From the NCBI GenBank assembly GCA_963715995.1, contig OY970283.1, positions 2,866,411-2,930,410 of the forward strand: DNA of 64,000 nucleotides. Reading direction: 5' to 3'. The translations under genes and the position numbers were made by a program. This DNA comes from an uncultured Thermoleophilaceae bacterium. GTDB taxonomy: Bacteria > Actinomycetota > Thermoleophilia > Solirubrobacterales > Thermoleophilaceae. The first letter of the stretch is position 1. Every line of letters starts with the position of its first letter. A model generated the notes under the pieces. The model was not told the DNA's origin, made no database searches, and saw only the letters and a program-made list of their open reading frames with translations. Of this stretch, positions 4,268 to 56,411 are shown piece by piece.

Positions 4268-5356
4268 TCAGGATAGCGAGGGGCGTCTCGTGCGCCTGCG
4301 CGCGCGCAGGCGTCTGAACCAGCCCGCCACGCGGCGCCAGAAGCCGCCGTTGAAGCGCGCGGGCTCGGGCTGCTTGGTGCGCACGAGCGCCACCCAGTCG
4401 TCCAGCGGGAGCGTGCCGTCGATCAGCTTCGCAAGCGCCGAGATGACGGGTGCGTCGACGTCTGCCGCCTCGCACGCGCGCGCCAGCAGCGACACGGTCT
4501 CGAGCGCCTCCGAGACCTGGCCCAGGCGCACCGGCACCTCGCTCGCAGGCACGCCCTGGGCCAGCAGCTCGCCGGCCGCCCGGTTGCGGCTGGACGGCGC
4601 AAGCGCGGTTGCCATCAGGTCGCCGATCCCGGCGCGGCCGACGAACGTCGCCGCGAGCGCGCCCTGCACCTCGGCCAGCGCGAGCACCTCGGCGAAGACG
4701 TCGCCCGCGGCCATGCCAGCCGCGTTGAAGCCCTGCTCGATCGTGGCGCCGGCCGCCAGCGCGGCGGCGTTCTTGGCCGCGCCGGCCAGCTCCACGCCAA
4801 CGGGATCGTTCGACACCTCGCACACCGTCCCCGCCTGCTGGAAGGCGTCGGCGATCCGGTGCGCGAGCCCCTCGGAGTGCGATGCGGCGACCAGGCCGGC
4901 GCCGGACTCGACCATCTCGCGCGCGTGCGCGGGGCCTCCCAGACACGCGACGCGCCCGGGCGAGAAGAGGCGCTCGAGATAGATGGTCGGCGGCAGGCCG
5001 TCGGGCGGCACGAGGCCCTTGGAGCACGACACGATCCCGGCGTGACCCGGCAGGTCCTGCGCCGCCAGCGCATCACCCGCCGAGCCGAGTGCGGCCGAGG
5101 GCACGGCCAGGAAGACGGCGTCGACGCGGCGAAACTGCCCTGCGTCCGGATCGAGCGCGCGCACGCGCAGGCCGCCGGGCAGCTCGACGCCCTCGAGGTA
5201 GTGGCTGTTGACCCGCTCCGACTCGAGCGTGGCCGCCTGCTCGCCGGTCCGCGTGTAGAGGGTCGTGCGCACGCCCGAGCGTTCGAGCAGCACCGCGATC
5301 GCCGTGCCGAAGGAGCCGGCGCCGATCACGGCCGCGCGTCGGATCGGGTGACGCAT
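4268..5356 (-). CDS. gpsA: NAD(P)H-dependent glycerol-3-phosphate dehydrogenase
   Basis: N-terminal Rossmann motif [24 protein letters not shown], and the C-terminal GpsA-like NRxxG region ([11 protein letters not shown]). Confidence 0.88.
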
Positions 5357-5788: not shown

Positions 5789-7315
5789 TCAGCCGGCCTT
5801 GGCCAGGTACTGATGGCCGGCCTTCACCACGACGTTGCGCTTCTTGACCAGGTCGCGCACCGTCACCGCGCCCTTCGTCACGCGCACGAGCGTGCCGTCG
5901 CAGCGGTCGTCTGTCAGCCAGGTGGTGCCTCTGATGGTCGCGCTTGCGAAGCGGCCCTTCGTGCGGAACGGGCCGCTACCCGAGCCCCACAGGTGGCGGA
6001 TCGACTTCTTGCTGAGCTTCCTGCTCCTGGCAGCGGTCGCGACCGAGCCAGATGCGGCACAGCGCTTGAAGCTCCCACCGACCAGGGCGAGCTCAGCCAC
6101 GCCGCCGCCGTTCGCCAGCTGCGTGATCTTGAAGACGCCTTCGTAGAAATCGGAGCTGAACACCTTGCCGGTCTGGTCGGCGATCGAGATCCGCACACGC
6201 CCCGCGCGCGCATCCACCACCGCGCCCGGCTGGATCTGCGCCGGGCTCGTGAGCGGCGCCGATTTGCTCGACCCCGGTTGCTGCACGGTCACCGACCCGC
6301 CGGTCGGGCGCATGTCGATCTGCTGCGCGAACACGGGCGCAGGTGGCGGCGGAGGCGCAAGCTCGACCCGGCCGACCTTGTTGCCCGCCGCTTCGGTGAA
6401 CCAGATGTTCCCATCGGATCCGGCGCGGATTCCCTCGGGCCGGCTGGCGGCGGTCGGCACGTTGAACTCGCTGATCGCGCCACCGGGGCTGATGCGCCCG
6501 ATGCGGTTGCCCTGGAACTCCGTGAACCAGATCGCGCCGTCGGGGCCCGTGACCAGCTCGTGCGGAACCGAGCCGGCATTCGGCAGGACGAACTCGGTGA
6601 TCTGACCGGACGGCGTGATCCGCCCGACGCGGTTGCCGCTGTACTCGCTGAACCACACGTTCCCGTCTGGTCCCGGCGCGGTGATTCCCGGCTGGCTGGC
6701 GGCGGTCGGCACGGTGAACTGGGTGATCCGCCCGCTCGGCGTGACACGGCCGATGCGATTCGAGCCGGCCATTGCGACCCAGAGATTGCCGTCAGGACCC
6801 AGCGAGATCCCGTTCGGGACCGAATTCGCAGGCGACACAGGGAACTCCGTGATCCTCCCCGAGGTGGTGATCCGGCCGATCTTGTTGCCGCGGCTCTCGG
6901 TGAACCAGACGTTGCCATCAGGTCCCGCCGTGATGCCCTCCGGGCCGGCGCCGCCCGTGGGGATCGGGTACTCCGCAAGGAGCTTCCCGGCAGTGCTCAT
7001 CTTGGCGATGCCGTTGGCGCTGAACTCGGTGAACCAGATGTTCCCGTCCGGGCCCGGCGCGATCTCGTCCGGGCCGCGCCCGGCGGCGAGCCGGAACTCG
7101 CGGATCGAACCCGCGGGCGTGACGCGCGCGATCTTGTGCGCGCTGAACTCCGTGAACCAGTAGTTGCCGTCTGGCCCGAGCGCCGAGCTGTTCAGGTTCG
7201 CGGCGGACGTCGGGACCCGGAACTCGGTGATGTCGCCCACCGCCGCGCGCGCTGCGAGCGGCCCCAGAACGAGCCCGCAGCACAGCACCAGGGCGACGGC
7301 GATTCGGGCGCGCAC
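5789..7315 (-). CDS. secreted 7-bladed beta-propeller protein, virginiamycin B lyase (Vgb)-like repeats, with extra C-terminal domain
   Basis: Signal peptide, then seven ~42-aa repeats with GPDGN(I/V/L/Y)WFTE(F/S) and ITEF motifs. About 170 further residues follow a PPPPPAP linker. Confidence 0.7.
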   Translation of the reverse strand: MRARIAVALVLCCGLVLGPLAARAAVGDITEFRVPTSAANLNSSALGPDGNYWFTEFSAHKIARVTPAGSIREFRLAAGRGPDEIAPGPDGNIWFTEFSANGIAKMSTAGKLLAEYPIPTGGAGPEGITAGPDGNVWFTESRGNKIGRITTSGRITEFPVSPANSVPNGISLGPDGNLWVAMAGSNRIGRVTPSGRITQFTVPTAASQPGITAPGPDGNVWFSEYSGNRVGRITPSGQITEFVLPNAGSVPHELVTGPDGAIWFTEFQGNRIGRISPGGAISEFNVPTAASRPEGIRAGSDGNIWFTEAAGNKVGRVELAPPPPPAPVFAQQIDMRPTGGSVTVQQPGSSKSAPLTSPAQIQPGAVVDARAGRVRISIADQTGKVFSSDFYEGVFKITQLANGGGVAELALVGGSFKRCAASGSVATAARSRKLSKKSIRHLWGSGSGPFRTKGRFASATIRGTTWLTDDRCDGTLVRVTKGAVTVRDLVKKRNVVVKAGHQYLAKAG

Positions 7316-11322: not shown

Positions 11323-12642
11323 ATGCGGCGGCGGCCAACTCCCGGGCTCATGCTGCTCGGGGTCGTGCTGCTCGGCGCCCTGGCGCTGCGGCTCGTCGCG
11401 ATCGGCGACCCGCTGTCGAACGACGAGGGCTACACCTGGGTCGTCACCTCGGCGCACGCGCCGGGCCTGCTGCTGGACCGCCTGGCGGCCTACGAGAACA
11501 CGCCGCCCCTCTACTACCTGCTCACGTGGCCGCTGCCGGACGCCGGCGTTGCGTGGCTGCGGATCGTCGCGGTGCTGGCCGGGACGGGTTGCGTGGCCGC
11601 GGTCTGGTGGGTCGCGCAGGTCACACGATCGACATTTGCGACGCATAGCGTCGTCGATGTCGATCGCGTGGCGATCTTCGCCGCCGCGGCACTCGCGGTC
11701 GCGCCGTTTGCGGTCTCGTACTCCGACTACGCGCGCGGCTTCGTGCTGGCCGATCTGGCGCTGGTGGTGGCGCTCGGGGCGGCGCTTCGCGAGCGCTGGT
11801 GGCTGTACGCGCTGGCGGCGACGGTGGCGCTCTACAGCGAGTACGACAGCGCTCTGTTCCTGATCGCGCTGGCGCTTGCGGTCGGGTGGCGCCGGCGCGC
11901 CGTCGCGCTTCGGGTGCTTGCGCCGATCGCGGCCCTTGCGCTGTGGCTGCCGGAGGCGCTCCGCGACAGCGCCACCAAGGTGTCACCCACGTATCCGGCC
12001 CCGAGCTCGGCGAGCCTGCGTGACACGCTCGTACGGCTGACGTTCGGCGAGCACGGGACCGCCCACGCCACCAGCGTCCGCTGGCTCCAGCTCCTCGTGG
12101 TCGCAGCAGTTTGCGCATGGGCATACACAAGGGCTCCGAAGGTGCTCGCGACATTGGCGGGCGGCACGCTCGCGCTCCATGCGGTCACGGCCTGGATCGG
12201 GCCGGACGTCTTCGCCCCCCGCTACCTGACCGAGCTGATCCCGCTCACGGCGCTCACCCTCGGTTACGCGCTCGCCGGCCTGCGCGCGCGCGAGCTGCGG
12301 GTGGCAGCGGCGGTTGCGATCGCGGTGCTCGGCGCCGGCGTGGCCGTCAGGCGCACGGGCGGGAGCGACGAGCCGGACGGGGCGCGGGTCGCACACGAGG
12401 TCGCACCGCTTGCGCGCGGCCGCGTCGTGCTGACCAACAGCGCGGTCGTGGACTACTACCTGCGCGACCTCCACCCGCGCCTCGACCGCCCGTTCGGGCT
12501 CGGGCCGGGGCTCGAGGCAGGCTGCGCAGGCCGCTGCCTGATCATCGACGACGCGCGCGTGGCCGGCGGCCCGCGGCGCGGCCCCGGGCCGTCACGGCAC
12601 TACGGGCCGATCTACGTGCGGGTGCTACCGGGAGCTACTTGA
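11323..12642 (+). CDS. polytopic membrane glycosyltransferase, GT-C fold (ArnT/PMT/GT39-like)
   Basis: N-terminus [29 protein letters not shown]...[10 protein letters not shown] is typical of 4-amino-arabinose/mannosyl transferase-like enzymes, with about 10 TM segments. Start is ATG 11287, 11311 or 11323. Confidence 0.55.
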
Positions 12643-28357: not shown

Positions 28358-30178
28358 GTGCCCCTTCGCACGCTCACATTCCTAACGGCACTGGTCCTCG
28401 CCCTCGGCGCGGCTGCTCCTGCCATGGCCGCGGGCAAGCCGTGGTACCAGGACGGGCCCGGCGGGCGCATCCTGCTCGGCGGCAGCTGGCTCTACCGCGC
28501 GGACCCGGCCGACCAGGGCGTGGCCGGCGGCTGGGCAGCGCAGACAGACACGGTTGGCTGGTCGGCCACAACCGTGCCGAACGCCTGGAACGCGGGCGAC
28601 GACTCGGCCGCGAGCATGGCCGGCAGCGTCGGCTGGTACCGGCGTGATTTCACGGTCCCGGCGAAGCCGGCCGGCGCGAGCTGGATCGTCCGCTTCGAGT
28701 CCGTCAACTACTACGCGACGGTGTTCCTGAACGGCCGCCAGATCGGCCAGCACGAGGCGGCCTCGATCCCGTTCGACATCCCGCTGGCCGATCTCCAGCC
28801 AGGCGTCAACCACCTTGTCATCCGCGTGGACAGCCGCCGTGACCGCAACAGCCTGCCCCCAGGCCCGACCGGCGGCTGGTTCAACTACGGCGGGATCCTG
28901 CGCGAGGTCTACCTGCGCCCCGTGACGGGGGTCGACATCTCGGAGCTGCTCACGCGGCCGATCGGCGCAGACAGGCTGCTGGTGCGAGCGACGATCACCA
29001 ACCCGGACGGCCGCCTGCGAGCCGCGCGGGTGAATGCGCTGGTGGCAGGCCTGCCGGTGTCGCTCGGCACCGTGCGCGTGGGCGCCGGGGCGAGCCGCTC
29101 GCTGTCGAAGACCGTCACGGTCAGCAACGTGCGCGAGTGGGCGCCGCGCTCGCCGTCGCTGTTCGAGGTCACGGCGGTTGCCTCGGCCAAAGGCAAGACG
29201 CTTGCCACCTACACGGTCCATACCGGGCTGCGCACCCTCGCAATCCGCGGCGACGGCCGCATGACGATGAACGGCCTGGCGCTGAACCTGCGCGGCGCGG
29301 CCATGCACGAGCAGACGCCCGCGCGCGGCGCGGCGCTGCTGCCGGCCGACCACGCGCGCCAGATCAAGCTCCTCGAGAGCGCCGGCGCCGACCTGACGCG
29401 CGTCCACTACCCACTGTCGGAGGACTTCCTCGAGCGCGCCGACCGCGCCGGGATCGCGGTCTGGGAGGAGATCCCCTTCTACCAGCTGTCCGAATCGGCG
29501 ATGCGCGACCCGCTCGTGCGCCAGAAGGGGCTGGACTACCTTGCGGCCGCCATCAAGCGCGACGAGAATCATCCGTCGGTGATCGCCTGGAGCATCGGCA
29601 ACGAGCTGCCGGCCACACCGGGGCGCGGGCAGAAGGCGTACATCCGCGACGCGGTCGCGCTCGCGCACCGGCTCGACCCGACGCGCCCGGTGGCGCTGGC
29701 GCTGGCCGGCTACCCCGTGAAGAACTACCTGCCGGCCTACGCGCCGCTCGACGCGCTCGGGATCAACGACTACTTCGGCTGGTACCCGGGCCCGACCGGG
29801 CAGATCGAGAACCGGGCGGCGCTCGGGCAGTTCCTCGACCGCGCCCATGCGAACTACCCGCGGAAGGCCTTGTTCGTGACGGAGTTCGGCGCCGAGGCCA
29901 ACCGCGCCGGGCCGCGCGACGAGAAGGGCACCTACGACTACCAGAAGGAGTTCATGCGCTTCCACCTGGCCACCTACGCGAAGCGCCCGTGGCTGAACGG
30001 GGCGATCGTGTGGACGCTCCAGGACTTCAAGGTGCGTCCCGACTGGACCGGCGGCAACCCGCAGCCGGACGCGCCCTGGCTGCGCAAGGGGCTGCTCGAC
30101 CAGAACGGCAGCCCGAAGCCTGCCTACGCCCCGACGGCGCGCACCTTCAAGCGCGCGAAGCCGCTGGTGGCGCCGTGA
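28358..30178 (+). CDS. secreted glycoside hydrolase family 2
   Basis: Signal peptide ending APAMAAG. NHPSVIAWSIGNE (acid/base region) and LFVTEFGAE (nucleophile region) are typical of GH2. Confidence 0.8.
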   Translation: MPLRTLTFLTALVLALGAAAPAMAAGKPWYQDGPGGRILLGGSWLYRADPADQGVAGGWAAQTDTVGWSATTVPNAWNAGDDSAASMAGSVGWYRRDFTVPAKPAGASWIVRFESVNYYATVFLNGRQIGQHEAASIPFDIPLADLQPGVNHLVIRVDSRRDRNSLPPGPTGGWFNYGGILREVYLRPVTGVDISELLTRPIGADRLLVRATITNPDGRLRAARVNALVAGLPVSLGTVRVGAGASRSLSKTVTVSNVREWAPRSPSLFEVTAVASAKGKTLATYTVHTGLRTLAIRGDGRMTMNGLALNLRGAAMHEQTPARGAALLPADHARQIKLLESAGADLTRVHYPLSEDFLERADRAGIAVWEEIPFYQLSESAMRDPLVRQKGLDYLAAAIKRDENHPSVIAWSIGNELPATPGRGQKAYIRDAVALAHRLDPTRPVALALAGYPVKNYLPAYAPLDALGINDYFGWYPGPTGQIENRAALGQFLDRAHANYPRKALFVTEFGAEANRAGPRDEKGTYDYQKEFMRFHLATYAKRPWLNGAIVWTLQDFKVRPDWTGGNPQPDAPWLRKGLLDQNGSPKPAYAPTARTFKRAKPLVAP

Positions 30179-31164
30179 GGCAGCGCATCGCCGCGGCGAC
30201 ACTCGCCCTCGCGGCGCTGCTCGCCGCGACCGCCGTCGCGGCGCCGCCCGCGCGCGTGACGATCGTGGCCGTCTTCGATCCCATCACCTACGGCGAGAAC
30301 GCCTTCGTGAACGGGCAGCTCGTCGACGATGGACAAGCGGGGCAGCCGGTCGCCCTCGAGCAGTCGCCTCCCCCCTACACCGACTGGGCGCCCGTGGCGC
30401 AGACCACGAGCGACGCCCAGGGCTACTACAGCTTCAAGCTGCATCCAAGCCAGACGATGCAGTACCGCACGAGCTCGCAGGGAACCCCGAGCGAGAAGAC
30501 CGTCCAGGTGAACCTGGCGCCGCGGATCGCGTTCAGCGCGGCGGCGGCCGGCAAGTCGAGCGTGCGCTTCAGCGGCACCTTCGGCCCGGCACTGCTCGGC
30601 CAGAGCGTCGCGATCCAGCGACGCGATTCGCACGGCGCGTGGACCACGATCGCCACGGCCACCCTGCGCAAGGGCGCGACTTTCGGCGGCCGCCTGCGCG
30701 CACGCCACACGATCACGCTGCGCGCGTTCTTCGCAGGCGACGTCGCACACCTGCCCGGCGCGAGCCCGGCCGCGACCGTCGCGCGGGGCAGCGCGCCGAC
30801 GAAGGCGGCGCGGGCGGCGGCGACGAGGGCTGCACGCGCCGCGGCGGCGAGTTGCCGCGCGCCACGCGTGACGAAGGTGGTCGCGACACCGCAGACGCTG
30901 CGGGCCGGAAAGAAGCTGAAGCTGCGCGTGACGGCAGCAATGCCGAGCGGGCGCATCTACGCACTCGATGTCCGCTGGGGCACGGCAGGCCAGCGCGACC
31001 ACTTCACGTTCGCGCCGGCAGCACGCAGGCCGACGTTGAGCAGCGACTTCTTCCACGTCTACGACGACGCCGGGAGCTACACCGTCACCGTCAGGGCGTA
31101 TGGACGTGCAGGCCGCTGCAAGCGAAGCTCGCCACCGCTGCGGAGGACGCTGCGGGTGGCGTAG
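30175..31164 (+). CDS. secreted protein with C-terminal PKD-like domain
   Basis: GTG 30175 (GTGA overlap with the GH2 stop). Signal peptide AALLAATAVAAPPA. The C-terminal FFHVYDDAGSYTVTVRAYG is a PKD-type motif. Confidence 0.55.
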   Translation: MRQRIAAATLALAALLAATAVAAPPARVTIVAVFDPITYGENAFVNGQLVDDGQAGQPVALEQSPPPYTDWAPVAQTTSDAQGYYSFKLHPSQTMQYRTSSQGTPSEKTVQVNLAPRIAFSAAAAGKSSVRFSGTFGPALLGQSVAIQRRDSHGAWTTIATATLRKGATFGGRLRARHTITLRAFFAGDVAHLPGASPAATVARGSAPTKAARAAATRAARAAAASCRAPRVTKVVATPQTLRAGKKLKLRVTAAMPSGRIYALDVRWGTAGQRDHFTFAPAARRPTLSSDFFHVYDDAGSYTVTVRAYGRAGRCKRSSPPLRRTLRVA

Positions 31165-31433
31165 GGCCGCGGCGCCGTGGGTCAGGGCTGCGGCGACGCG
31201 TTTCCGCGGAAACTACCCCAGGGCGGGGACATGGCGGTGCTTTCGGGTGGCGCTTTCGGGTCGCGGTGCGCTCTCCGCCCACGTGTCAGGGCTCGGGCGG
31301 CGTGGTTCGCGAGCACCGACCCTCCGTTGGGCAACCAAGAGGGATCGGTGCTCGCTCGCGAAGCCGCTTTTGGTCTCGCTGTGATCAGTTGTGGTCGCGT
31401 GGCGGACCTGAGTGACCACAGCGGCTCGGGTTT

Positions 31434-31557
31434 CGGGAGCAACCGTCAATTGGTGTCGCATAGCGACAGTTATTGACGGTTGCGGCGCGATCGAGGGGAG
31501 CAACGTTCAATTCTTCCCGCATAGCGGGAACTATTGAACGAAGCGAGCGTTCGAGGG
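31434..31557. repeat. two tandem ~62-nt units, each a 37-45 nt hairpin of identical architecture
   Basis: 31439-31483 is GCAACCGTCAAT-TGG-TGTCGC-ATA-GCGACA-GTT-ATTGACGGTTGC. 31504-31540 is CGTTCAAT-TCT-TCCCGC-ATA-GCGGGA-ACT-ATTGAACG. Confidence 0.8.
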
Positions 31558-31642
31558 ACGAAGCGGCCGGCGCGAGAGCGCAAGCGCCACTCCAGCCACC
31601 CCTTGGCCGAGGCAGTTTCCGAACCGCAGCGAGGGGACGGCC

Positions 31643-31742
31643 GGCGGCAGAGCGGGAAGGCGGGCGGCAGGGCGGGGCGGGCGGCGGCAGGGCGGGGCGG
31701 CTGGCGGCAGGGCGGGACGGCTGGCGGCAGAACGGGGCCGAC
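31643..31742. repeat. 5 x 20-bp G-rich tandem repeat (GGCGGCAG-N12)
   Basis: GGCGGCAG recurs at 31643, 31663, 31683, 31703 and 31723. The + strand meets the G3+N1-7 x4 quadruplex pattern. The - strand is strongly C>G. Confidence 0.8.
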
Positions 31743-31783
31743 GGATAGCAGAACGGCGGCAGCGCACACGCGCCGCCACACCC

Positions 31784-32734
31784 CTACACAGCGTCGTCCA
31801 GCAACCGCTGCGCCGCACTGGCCGGATCCAGGCGCCGCGCCACGACCTCGTCGAGCAGTTCCTGGAGCTGCTCGTCGCCGCGCACCGACTCCTCGAGCCG
31901 GCGCCTCAGCCTGACGGTCGCCAGCTCCATCACCTCGTTGCGCAAGTTGCGCCGCCGACGCTCGTCGAGCGTCCCCTCGGCCTCGATGTGCTCGCGGTGC
32001 TGGGCGATTCGCTCGGCCAGCTCCTCGATCCCCTCCCCTGCCGACGCCTTCGTACGCACGATCGGCACGCGCCAGCTGGTCTTCGGGCCGAGCGACAGCA
32101 CGCCGCGGATCTCGCGGACCATCGTGTCGGTGAGCGGATGCTCGGCCTTGTTGACGACGATCACGTCCGGGATCTCCATGACCCCGGCCTTGAGCGCCTG
32201 GATCGAGTCGCCGGAGCCGGGCATCAGCGCCAGCACGACCGTGTCGGCGTGATCGATGATGTCCACCTCGGCCTGGCCGACGCCGACCGTCTCCAGATAG
32301 ACCTCGTCCTTGCCGGACGCGTCCATGAGGAGCGCCGCCTGGAGCGTTGCCTCGCTCAGACCGCCGAGCGATCCGCGGCTGGCCATCGATCGGATGAAGA
32401 CGCCCGGGTCCAGGAAGTGCTCTGTCAACCGGATCCGGTCGCCCAGCAGCGCGCCCTGGGTGAACGGGGACGACGGGTCGATCGACAGGACCGCCACGTC
32501 GCGGTCGCGCTCGCGCGCGTCCGCCACCAGGCGGCCAATGATCGTCGACTTGCCCACCCCCGGCGGCCCGGTGAAGCCGATGACGGCCGCCTTTCCGGTC
32601 TTCGGATAGACCTGCCTGACGAGCTCCCAGCCCTCGGGGTCGTCGTCCTCGACCAGCGAGATCGCCCGCGCCAGCGCCCGCTTGTCGCCCGCAAGCAGCG
32701 GCCCGACGAGCTCGGATGCGGTCCGGCGAGGCAT
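31784..32734 (-). CDS. meaB: methylmalonyl-CoA-mutase-associated GTPase (MeaB/ArgK family)
   Basis: P-loop GFTGPPGVGKST and VVNKAEHP (NKxD-like). ATG 32734; the upstream 66 codons of the track ORF are antisense to csbD. Confidence 0.85.
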   Translation of the reverse strand: MPRRTASELVGPLLAGDKRALARAISLVEDDDPEGWELVRQVYPKTGKAAVIGFTGPPGVGKSTIIGRLVADARERDRDVAVLSIDPSSPFTQGALLGDRIRLTEHFLDPGVFIRSMASRGSLGGLSEATLQAALLMDASGKDEVYLETVGVGQAEVDIIDHADTVVLALMPGSGDSIQALKAGVMEIPDVIVVNKAEHPLTDTMVREIRGVLSLGPKTSWRVPIVRTKASAGEGIEELAERIAQHREHIEAEGTLDERRRRNLRNEVMELATVRLRRRLEESVRGDEQLQELLDEVVARRLDPASAAQRLLDDAV

Positions 32735-44077: not shown

Positions 44078-44112
44078 GCAAGCGTTTGTAACAAAGCGGG
44101 GCCGAACTGCAC

Positions 44113-44296
44113 GGTTTCCGTCGGCTTGCCCTGGCGCCTCGATGTGGAAACTGCGGCGGCCAAGGCGTGGCTGAAGCGGCGCTTGCGCTCGTCGCGCGGC
44201 GTTTTGGTCGCTCCACCTGCGCCGACTGTGACGTTAACCCCCGATAGCGCGCATAACTTCACAGTCACCACCAAAAGCGGCAGCTAGACCGAGCAC
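44113..44296. repeat. composite intergenic repeat, copy C (inverted, truncated, no minisatellite)
   Basis: 44146-44187 equals the reverse complement of the copy A right module (37/42). Hairpin 44224-44266. 44270-44281 ACCAAAAGCGGC equals the reverse complement of 31364-31375. Confidence 0.65.
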
Positions 44297-44328
44297 AGAG
44301 CCGCTCGAGCGATGACCCGAGCGCTGCC

Positions 44329-52425: not shown

Positions 52426-52445
52426 GACTTCAGAAAGTGTAGTGG

Positions 52446-52997
52446 TGGGTGGCGCGCTCGGGCAGGGCTTCCGACGTGTTAGGGCTCAGGCGGCGTGGTT
52501 CGCGAGCACCGACCCTCCGTTGGGCAACTAAGAGGGATCGGTGCTCGCTCGCGAAGCCGCTGTTGGTCTCGCTGTCTCGGTTCGCTCGTGGCGCCGCGCT
52601 TCTGGTCGCGAGTTTCACGTTAAGCCGCGTATATCGGCTCAATGTGAAACTCGGGCTTCGAGTGGCAGGTTGACCACGCGGTTCGCGGGTGAAGGTGCCA
52701 CTCGGGCATCGAGTGTGACCTCGACCACGCTATACGTGGTTAACGTCACAGTCGCCGGTCAGTGAGCGCGTTTGCGCGGGTTCGAAGGCCGGCGGGGGCG
52801 AGATGGCCGGCGAGAGAACGCAAGCGCCAGACCAGCCACCCCTTGGCCGAAGCAGTTTCCAAACCGCGGTGCCAGAGCGGGGGGCGGAGAGCGGCGAGGG
52901 GACGGCCGGCGGAGAGCGGCGAGGGGCCGGCGGGCGGCAGAGCGCCGAGGGGACGGCTGGCGGCAGAACGGGACGGCCGGCGGAGAGCAGCGACGAG
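52446..52997. repeat. composite intergenic repeat, copy B
   Basis: Same module order and orientation as copy A. Left module 52446-52578 includes a 47-nt hairpin at 52502-52548. Hairpins at 52610-52652, 52659-52704 and 52714-52750. Right module 52805-52868. Minisatellite 52883-52997. Confidence 0.8.
52883..52997. repeat. G-rich tandem repeat, units of 25/25/26/20/~19 bp (GGCGG(A/C)(G/A)AG...)
   Basis: Units start at 52883, 52908, 52933, 52959 and 52979. Related to, but with a different period from, the copy A minisatellite. It ends 6 nt from the AIM24 stop codon. Confidence 0.75.
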
Positions 52998-53002
52998 CCG
53001 AG

Positions 53003-56006: not shown

Positions 56007-56249
56007 GTAGTTACTCGTCGCTCCTTGATGCAGTCAGCGGTCGCGCAAGGCTTCCGGGCCAGAACCTCGACGGAGGCGGGGCCTCCCCGAAAGCCTATAC
56101 AGCGGTGTCTGCGATTCGGAACATCCTGTTCCCGTTGAGAACGAACGCCCAGATGGCCGGCAGGCCTGCCTACCCCTGTGAGCACATCGTTCAAACTCGA
56201 ACATTCAACGAGGGCAGAGGACCGTTTCTTCGGTGATCGCTATATTCCT

Positions 56250-56398
56250 CGGCGCCTAAGCACTGGGGACGGTCCCAGAGCACGGGGGAACCATTGCGGT
56301 CTGTGGCCTGCCAGCCTGGACCGCGGGGGCGAATCGAGCGCATTGCCGCGCTCGTAGGGACCTTGGTCCCGAGCCCGACAGCTCACCTCGTCGGCGCC
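56250..56398 (+). promoter_or_regulatory. c-di-AMP riboswitch (ydaO-yuaA class) in the 5' leader of the RlpA-like gene
   Basis: P1 CGGCGCC (56250) pairs with GGCGCCG (56392). Conserved blocks are GAGCACGGGGGAACCA, CGCGGGGGCGAATC and GUAGGGA...CCCGAGCCCGACAGCUCACCUCGUCGGCG. They match the B. subtilis ydaO blocks as I recall them. Confidence 0.75.
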
Positions 56399-56411
56399 GA
56401 TTCAACACAAC

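Follow-up and report, generated by a model that had tools for sequence, protein, structure and literature searches.

A candidate mosaic interspersed repeat with two-tier hairpins in intergenic spacers of a Thermoleophilaceae bacterium

Three intergenic sites occupied by one composite element

The stretch analyzed here, referred to as the window, is 64,000 nucleotides long, comes from an uncultured Thermoleophilaceae bacterium (contig OY970283.1), and has a G+C content of about 70% throughout. Two convergent genes lie near its middle: a plus-strand gene at 30175-31164, annotated as coding for a secreted PKD/CarboxypepD_reg-like protein, and meaB at 31784-32734 on the minus strand. The 619 bp between them (given as 620 bp in an earlier note on this DNA) are filled by a composite, hairpin-rich element, copy A (31165-31783, plus strand). 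Its parts are, from left to right, a module with a terminator-like hairpin (module i), a middle region of tandem hairpins, a conserved box (module iii), and a G-rich minisatellite (module iv). The earlier note had proposed that the composite recurs three times, and it does: there is a second full copy, B, at 52426-53002 (plus strand) and a truncated, inverted copy, C, at 44078-44328 (minus strand).

For comparison, about 1 Mb of related Thermoleophilia DNA was assembled around meaB, ftsZ, and a gene for a GT39-type glycosyltransferase; loci in this collection carry L-numbers. In five syntenic contigs meaB overlaps or abuts the convergent gene, and therefore all 619 bp of copy A are extra DNA. 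The flanking proteins of this site have full-length orthologues in the relatives (92% and 56% identity), and MeaB is 89–92% identical to proteins from Thermoleophilaceae metagenome bins and soil metagenomes. Many open reading frames (ORFs) arise mechanically in the high-GC sequence of the gap; none is credible because the five syntenic relatives do without the entire region, and the absence of a gene anticipated by the earlier note is thus borne out.

Copy B occupies the entire spacer from the start codon of hxlR to the stop codon of an AIM24-family gene, 577 bp in the window versus 35–93 bp at five syntenic loci. The order of its modules is that of copy A, and it begins about 20 nt upstream of the hxlR start codon. 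The short spacer of the relatives holds an operator-like palindrome, ACTTCAnnTnnTGAAGT, and a -10-like hexamer just upstream of hxlR (L073 741-800, L083 4843-4895, L133 760-806, and L069 5200-5294). All that is left of this site in the window, at 52426-52445, is its promoter-proximal half, TTTCTGAAGTC; judged from this loss, the insertion of copy B probably altered hxlR autoregulation.

Copy C, recognized by blastn, nhmmer, pattern matching, and folding, fills the spacer between ftsZ and ggt. The order of these two genes is kept in 63 of 80 related loci, usually with a gap of 5–100 bp; the spacer measures 251 bp in the window versus 87 bp in the closest relative. It contains the core of module iii (44146-44187), a single middle hairpin, C1 (44220-44264), and a marginal remnant of module i (44267-44328), and it has no G-rich array.

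Relatives have little or no spacer in these three places, and some of the genes overlap there; all three copies are therefore insertions. The orientation to the neighboring genes differs from site to site: copy A lies between convergent genes, copy B lies tail-to-head, antisense between two co-directional genes, and copy C is co-directional with both of its neighbors. The annotated genes that flank the three copies include no transposase, recombinase, integrase, or HUH gene.

The ftsZ-ggt spacer of distant Thermoleophilia-like relatives holds a different sequence of about 100 nt, which is conserved among them (L076 2375-2547, L081 1498-1770, L086 11428-11628, L096 11449-11652, L101 8946-9146, L084 2682-2898, and L078 3163-3356). 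Its outer arms pair in a long helix, CTGAGAG...CTCTCAG, beyond which lies a conserved GTGGTATCGCT...GAGAAGGGAG stretch; the sequence looks like an undescribed structured element in the ftsZ 3' untranslated region (UTR) or the ggt leader. That copy C might be homologous to this spacer element was considered and rejected, as sequence comparison found no homology.

Conserved end modules and G-rich arrays

Module i of copy A (31278-31382, plus strand) is 95% identical to its counterpart in copy B (52471-52575, plus strand). A module i profile finds these two loci in the window and no others (nhmmer E 1.6e-44 and 1.3e-41, respectively). In copy A the module forms a long hairpin at 31297-31367 with a core at 31309-31355 that consists of 11 bp, a 1-nt bulge, 5 bp, a 2-nt bulge, 4 bp, and a GCAA loop. 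The stem has a folding energy of -28.8 kcal/mol as DNA (z -5.9, DNA fold). The 47-nt hairpin that the earlier note had called perfect therefore exists, although two bulges interrupt it. It is followed by TTTT at 31368-31371, about 8 nt past the core stem. The hairpin of copy B (52490-52560; fold z -4.5) has a broken T-run in this place (GTTG; GCTGTTGG), and one C-to-T change in it converts a G-C pair to G-T on the plus strand. Consensus scans for promoters and terminators called nothing in copy A or B. The remnant of module i in copy C amounts to 33 nt at 79% identity (blastn E 0.04) and is undetected by nhmmer at E<=10. Of the recurrences of modules i and iii that had been placed at 52446-52997 and, inverted, at 44113-44296, the former stands for both modules and the latter for module iii, module i being reduced there to that marginal remnant.

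In the left flank of copy A (31176-31199 and 31239-31265), part of the beginning of module i recurs (GTCAGGGCT..GCGGCG), and a 13-nt unit is present twice (GCTTTCGGGTCGC). These duplicated pieces suggest a local duplication at the site of the insertion.

Module iii is the best-conserved part of the element. In copy A it spans 31555-31647 (plus strand; core box 31579-31620) and is 80% identical to 52795-52887 of copy B (plus strand; core box 52819-52860; nhmmer E 3.8e-22). Over the best 52 nt it is 88% identical to the inverted module iii of copy C (about 44119-44211; nhmmer E 3.2e-20). The conserved core is a 42-nt box, in which the pattern CGCAAGCGCC-N4-CAGCCAC-N-CCTTGGCCG-NN-GCAGTTTCC is invariant in A, B, and C, in agreement with the right module of the earlier note. 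A 28-nt pattern from module iii has three matches in the window versus 0.00 expected by chance, and the module iii profile reports three window loci only (nhmmer E 1e-20 to 4e-22). Module iii shows no local fold (z +0.4 in A, +1.6 in B, and +0.3 in C). Two candidate functions for it were rejected. A conserved micro-ORF has a similar frame in the three copies, but a stop at 31535-31537 closes it in copy A on reading of the sequence, and the variable positions of the module do not fall at third codon positions. Inspection by eye for sigma-54 and ECF-type promoters gave no consistent match.

The two modules appear to be narrowly distributed. The BLASTN and nhmmer searches proposed by the earlier note, run on the window and the 1 Mb of related DNA (blastn, nhmmer --max), place module i at A and B and module iii at A, B, and C, with no match in the relatives. 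An exact search for CCTTGGCCGNNGCAGTTTCC in one genome per GTDB species gives 53 single matches in unrelated phyla, which are taken as chance because none extends past the seeded 20-mer. A 22-base module iii pattern has no match in JGI metagenomes, a scan of viral contigs for the element gives none, and blastn against plasmids and phages finds no match to it. A comparison with Rfam, likewise proposed before, returns nothing at gathering thresholds for copies A, B, and C, and permissive scans return only noise (E>1, far below threshold); the statement that the element belongs to no named RNA family holds. The sole curated Rfam match in the window is a c-di-AMP (ydaO/yuaA) riboswitch at 56243-56411 on the plus strand, at 57.5 bits against a gathering threshold of 38. 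A full-text literature search found no repeat family described for Thermoleophilia.

Copies A and B end in G-rich minisatellites, which are the strongest tandem arrays of the window according to Tandem Repeats Finder (TRF). The array of copy A (31634-31738, plus strand; TRF 138-154) has a 20-nt unit in 4.8 copies at 31634-31730, which matches the five 20-bp G-rich repeats reported earlier. That of copy B (52878-53000, plus strand; TRF 129-143) has 25-26-nt units, with a period of 25 at 52883-52971, and ends 3 nt short of the stop codon of the converging gene. The G/C ratio is 2.3 in A, with 3 T per 135 nt, and 2.25 in B, with 1 T per 127 nt; the A array is C-rich on the strand of the meaB mRNA. 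On the strand of meaB and the AIM24-family gene, respectively, the arrays directly follow the stop codons of these genes, and therefore transcripts reading out of either gene would be strongly C-rich and G-poor there. The only canonical G4 motif in the window lies in the minisatellite of copy A; a G-quadruplex as a common feature of the copies was rejected, since the motif is confined to A. In a different setting, within a minus-strand coding region, seven tandem repeats of about 126 bp (61–72% identical) occur at 6347-7199.

One class of two-tier hairpins inside and outside the element

Between modules i and iii lie three hairpin units in copy A, three in copy B, and one in copy C, always on the same side of module iii and 32-64 nt away from it. 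All units are 45 nt long except one of 46 nt, and share one layout: the outer stem has 12 bp and the inner stem 6 bp, a 3x3 internal loop separates the two, and an AT-rich loop of 3-7 nt closes the end. Their GC content is 0.49-0.56 in a genome of about 70% GC. Successive units start 61 nt apart in A, both times, and 50 and then 51 nt apart in B.

In copy A, hairpin A2 (31439-31483; z -8.6, GC 0.51) has the full 12-bp, 3x3-loop, 6-bp layout with an ATA loop, the apex CGCATAGCG, and Watson-Crick pairs at 18 of 22 positions. Hairpin A3 (31500-31544; z -5.9, GC 0.49) has the same geometry and apex. The two are identical at 31 of 45 positions and differ by four compensatory pairs, in which both sides have changed. 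The first unit, A1 (31378-31422), is degenerate, with 21.2 bits (E 0.011) on the minus strand under the covariance model described below and a fold z of -1.3, which is not significant. The lower-GC middle with tandem hairpins that the earlier note had outlined consequently comprises two strong hairpins and a weak first one. Copy B holds B1 (52609-52653), B2 (52659-52704), and B3 (52710-52754), with z of -6.5, -5.2, and -4.3, and C1 of copy C folds with z -4.5. A-type and B-type hairpins have only 6-14 of 45 positions in common, and B3 and C1 are identical at 33 of 45 (73%).

A covariance model, R1, was built from six hairpins, namely A2, A3, and four A-like hairpins that lie inside genes; no B hairpin was included. 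In the ungapped alignment of the six, 92.6% of the cells are paired, 13 of the 18 pairs have changes in both partners, no pair is changed in just one partner, and the 100 paired cells include no G-U. None of 500 shuffles matched this covariation, and slid registers come nowhere near it. Covariation, whose analysis the earlier note had suggested, is thus of the Watson-Crick kind only in these six hairpins. Within the window, R1 matches B3 (E 3e-5), B1 (E 0.01), and A1 (E 0.011) over their full length, and B2 at E 0.64; no new member was found in 0.94 Mb of DNA from the relatives. Recovery of B3 and B1 by a model without B hairpins bears out the proposal that the middle keeps the same fold with a different sequence. 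The hairpins score on both strands, and B3 and A1 fit R1 better when inverted, which is consistent with loop flipping. Their centers are AT-rich. The apex 9-mer CGC-ATA-GCG occurs three times in the window, each time at a hairpin apex (A2, A3, and the in-gene hairpin at 11624-11668), and is always read in one sense, which the in-gene hairpins share with A2 and A3. Other CGCATAGCG sites in the relatives are not hairpin apices, save the orthologous in-gene one.

The in-gene hairpin of the window, at 11624-11668 on the plus strand, is a fourth hairpin of the 45-nt class, found by a palindrome scan, and lies in frame in the gene for the GT39-type glycosyltransferase (11287/11350-12642). It has the geometry and apex of A2 and A3 and encodes 15 residues of the protein. 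It is also the best R1 match (56.9 bits), but is itself one of the training sequences of R1. Hairpins of identical geometry occupy the same codon position of the GT39 gene at L140 (7308-7352), L142 (826-870), and L146 (478-522), with the apex retained and the inner pairs different; at L146 the outer stem differs too. On direct comparison of the sequences, an arm of the GT39 hairpin at L141 (about 4472-4514) matches B1 at 12 of 14 positions. The orthologues at L143 and L145 have no hairpin and are 42 and 30 nt shorter there; compared with the shortest of all (L143), the gene in the window is 42 nt longer with its frame kept. Of the 53 orthologous proteins, 27 have an insert here; its center frequently reads T/P-H-S, the counterpart of the apex CGCATAGCG. 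Conservation within the GT39 hairpin is uneven. The apex is 89-100% conserved, and the outer stem 96-100% among three lineages, whereas identity at the three distal inner pairs is as low as 17-33% in most comparisons, with complementarity retained. The internal loops and distal inner pairs vary faster than the flanks, which are 63-83% identical. Taken together, the fold, the model matches, and the in-gene hairpins show that the middle palindromes are one structural class that also occurs outside the element.

Inspection of B1 also brought up a parS-like coincidence, as its arms hold the half-sites GTTTCAC/GTGAAAC; this was dismissed as a single post-hoc 7-mer match that is missing from the other units. 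Other low-GC two-tier palindromes occur in the relatives at L061 13434-13482, L135 4772-4819, L083 6896-6944, L073 6317-6363, and L103 5033-5081, e.g., with GGGGTCAGACCCC-type arms or with CCGTCCTGACTT...AAGTCAGGACAG arms and a CTATA loop. Model R1 does not detect them, and they may be separate REP-like families in Thermoleophilia.

A probable mosaic repeat, its alternatives, and its relation to known elements

The closest pair of copies changes from module to module: A and B for module i (95%); A and C for module iii (88%, with about 80% for A-B and B-C); and B3 and C1 for the hairpin next to module iii (33/45). Because similarity between the copies is incongruent in this way, the element is a mosaic of modules that differ in history. 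On balance, we favor the view that a mosaic interspersed repeat, non-coding and restricted to this lineage, is present three times, copy A being one instance; that it is akin to pneumococcal BOX elements and to the bacterial interspersed mosaic elements (BIMEs) of enterobacteria; and that it probably also serves as a transcription buffer. Spread of the element and swapping of modules between its copies would both take place in DNA and depend on recombination or on a trans-acting enzyme whose gene lies outside the window. The palindromes may be kept complementary as DNA hairpins or cruciforms via template switching between their arms; alternatively or additionally, selection for a structure-recognizing protein may keep them so. 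Perfect hairpins are known to arise and persist through template switching, which also inverts their spacers (PMC8794818; PMC8604942). The palindromes are regarded as operating at the DNA level because their covariation is Watson-Crick only, they score on both strands, some fit better when inverted, and their centers are AT-rich. The lack of a conserved orientation to transcription and the absence of the element from every sampled relative likewise argue for propagation and reshuffling in DNA.

The buffer function is proposed on two grounds. A stable module i stem followed by TTTT in copy A suggests that module i acts as an intrinsic-terminator-like stop on the plus strand of the element, where it would serve the gene that ends at 31164; the remnant form in copy C would serve ftsZ. 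Further, transcription of meaB and of the AIM24-family gene could meet a Rho-loading and pause region in the C-rich strand of the minisatellite and the strong hairpins behind it. This role is suggested by the G/C ratio of 2.3 of the array, by its near lack of T, and by its position directly past the stop codons of these genes. As a predicted buffer, the inserted element probably ends or insulates transcription locally. Terminator-like modules that are dispersed as repeats have precedents in SPRITE and BOX elements (review PMC10969869).

Several observations weigh against this reading. When the left end of each copy is aligned locally with reverse-complemented module iii and judged against 1000 dinucleotide shuffles, no terminal inverted repeats (TIRs) exceed chance (p 0.08 in A, 0.57 in B, and 0.48 in C). 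Inverted pairs of 12 nt and 11 nt in copy A are plausible by eye as TIRs but are neither conserved in B nor common to C. No target-site duplication (TSD) or direct repeat is visible, the flanks being too diverged to place the ends exactly, and the flanking genes supply no transposase or recombinase. Mobility is deduced only from occupied versus empty sites of three copies in a 64-kb window. A simple scan for terminators is silent on A and B, the T-run of copy B is broken, and a Rho-type role cannot be general because copy C is without the G-rich array. Some features of the plus strand lean towards RNA, namely the GNRA-type GCAA loop and the G-C to G-T change in copy B, which is a mismatch on the other strand; so does, without significance, our own tally from the sequences of five G-T versus two A-C mismatches in the hairpins. 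Of the two identities offered in the earlier note, a structured RNA family or a REP/MITE-like repeat, the repeat is thus the better founded in view of the insertions, modularity, and variable orientation. The TIR test speaks against a canonical MITE (miniature inverted-repeat transposable element), and the RNA is the weaker option.

That option holds that the copies are structured non-coding RNA genes, or RNAs derived from 3' UTRs, expressed from the plus strand of the element. Module i would be a terminator or 5' domain, the hairpins protein-binding stem-loops with the apex CGCAUAGCG, and module iii a single-stranded interaction site. Folding of the element is indeed much stronger than that of shuffled sequence on either strand (plus, z -6; minus, z -8), and the hairpins keep their geometry while their sequence turns over. 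The GCAA tetraloop with its TTTT tail in copy A, the A/B difference that yields a G-U pair on the plus strand alone, and the constant sense of the conserved apex 9-mer in A2, A3, and the in-gene hairpins fit it as well. Against these stand the empty Rfam comparison, the lack of a sigma-70-type promoter-like site in A or B on consensus scanning, the unfolded state of the best-conserved module, and the hairpins that score on both strands with zero G-U among 100 paired cells. Orientation is inconsistent, and transcription of the plus strand at A or B would enter meaB or the AIM24-family gene in antisense. The element is missing from all sampled relatives, which is unusual for a functional RNA gene, and the module trees are incongruent. 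We consider an RNA of this kind unlikely, while giving it more weight than any of the explanations that follow. Growth in place, without mobility, through local duplication, slippage, and template switching, together with occasional ectopic gene conversion and selection for intergenic terminators, would account for the tandem arrays at exact periods, the partial module i duplications in the left flank of copy A, and the lack of detectable TIRs or TSDs. It seems quite improbable, as transfer between loci is needed anyway to explain 95% identity along 105 nt at a distance of 21 kb and an invariant 42-nt box at three loci, and relatives do without any spacer at site A. An assembly artefact or chance similarity is scarcely credible. 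Repeats are error-prone in assemblies and the source looks metagenome-assembled, judging by its relatives, but the copies differ from each other (73-95%) within intact, syntenic gene contexts, the module iii pattern has three matches versus 0.00 expected, and the profiles reach E 1e-20 to 1e-44.

A further possibility is that the hairpins are structure-recognized single-stranded DNA (ssDNA) substrates of recombination or transposition, comparable to attC sites or HUH hairpins, which are stacked as cassettes beside a docking box (module iii), the GT39 hairpin being a solo insertion. The fixed 12-3-6-3-6-3-12 geometry of 45 nt, in which the stems turn over and the internal loop stays mismatched, would agree with this. 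So would the one to three units per copy, unrelated in sequence between copies and at a constant side of module iii, 32-64 nt away; the single GT39 site with an A-like hairpin, a B1-like hairpin, or none, depending on lineage; and the distal inner pairs and internal loops that outpace the flanks around a fixed apex. Yet no gene for an integrase, HUH protein, or other recombinase adjoins the copies, no cargo lies between the hairpins, and the attC core sites RYYYAAC/GTTRRRY are not consistent on inspection, with an AAC...GTT foot in A2 and not in A3, B1, B3, or C1. Tandem duplication and divergence explain the exact 61/61- and 50/51-nt spacing equally well. To our knowledge, integrons have not been reported in Actinomycetota, which also counts against cassettes. 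This explanation is very unlikely in our judgment. In a broader form, which is a long shot, the 45-nt hairpin is predicted to be an undescribed recognition module read by its shape, either as an ssDNA substrate of a recombinase or transposase or as the site of an RNA-binding protein. Its features would be the 12-3-6-3-6-3-12 geometry, the apex CGC-AUA-GCG, and a fast-changing but complementary three-pair 'address' with the internal loop. If true, the composites would be cassette arrays docked beside the conserved box, and the GT39 hairpin a solo cassette replaced repeatedly at one site in the evolution of Thermoleophilaceae.

The mosaic repeat, which we prefer, shares traits with several known systems. 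Pneumococcal BOX elements have conserved end modules and a variable number of middle units of about 45 nt. Like BOX (boxA-boxB(n)-boxC) and the terminator-like SPRITE repeats that accompany it, the element is non-coding, intergenic, modular, and strongly folding, with a variable number of middle units. In contrast to BOX, its middle units are nearly unrelated between copies and yet have one geometry, its end modules are not inverted repeats of each other, and it adds a G-rich minisatellite and sits in a high-GC actinomycete; the likeness is one of architecture only. REP sequences and BIMEs of enterobacteria and pseudomonads, which go with RAYT transposases and number tens to hundreds per genome, have been proposed to act in termination, in protection of mRNA ends, and as binding sites of DNA-structuring proteins. 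Similar to them, with their units of about 20-65 nt, the element combines imperfect palindromic units (45 nt) with modules i, iii, and iv in extragenic mosaics that follow gene ends or separate convergent genes; the 64-kb window holds three such elements. Unlike them, it has no GTAG-like foot (the feet of its units differ: GCAAC.., CGAGT.., CACGA..), its units form tandem direct arrays instead of alternating, and no RAYT gene is seen at the flanks. attC sites are read by shape: an outer and an inner stem are separated by an unpaired central spacer and capped by a variable loop. The two-tier shape of the units recalls them; the units are smaller and have no core-site consensus, integrase, or gene cassettes. 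In common with MITEs the element is short (251-619 bp) and non-coding, is present in three copies, and occupies orthologous sites that are empty in relatives, but it is not a canonical MITE because its TIRs are not significant. The same difference separates it from a Porphyromonas gingivalis MITE with TIRs and an internal minisatellite, a short dispersed non-coding element with a variable tandem array (PMC4596501). Rickettsia palindromic elements (RPEs) are palindromic repeats that also occur in frame within genes and add peptide to the product (PMC10969869). The GT39 hairpin resembles them in lying in frame in a conserved ORF, in being absent from some orthologues, and in adding 10-14 residues to a loop. 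RPEs are about 100-150 bp long and conserved in sequence within a family, unlike the 45-nt unit with its variable stems and single intragenic site, and the comparison is an analogy, not a membership. By analogy, then, the element may be regarded as a new family within the familiar BOX/BIME-type mosaic intergenic repeats.

Thermoleophilia are abundant soil actinomycetes that are genetically little studied. The element shows one genome gaining long structured spacers where its relatives pack genes without gaps, and the insertions upstream of hxlR and between ftsZ and ggt likely change the termination and coupling of the neighboring genes. The part most worth following is the hairpin class. It offers a natural test of whether perfect hairpins are kept by structural selection or by template switching, because geometry and apex are conserved, stems are replaced, G-U intermediates are absent, and one member is coding across many orthologues.

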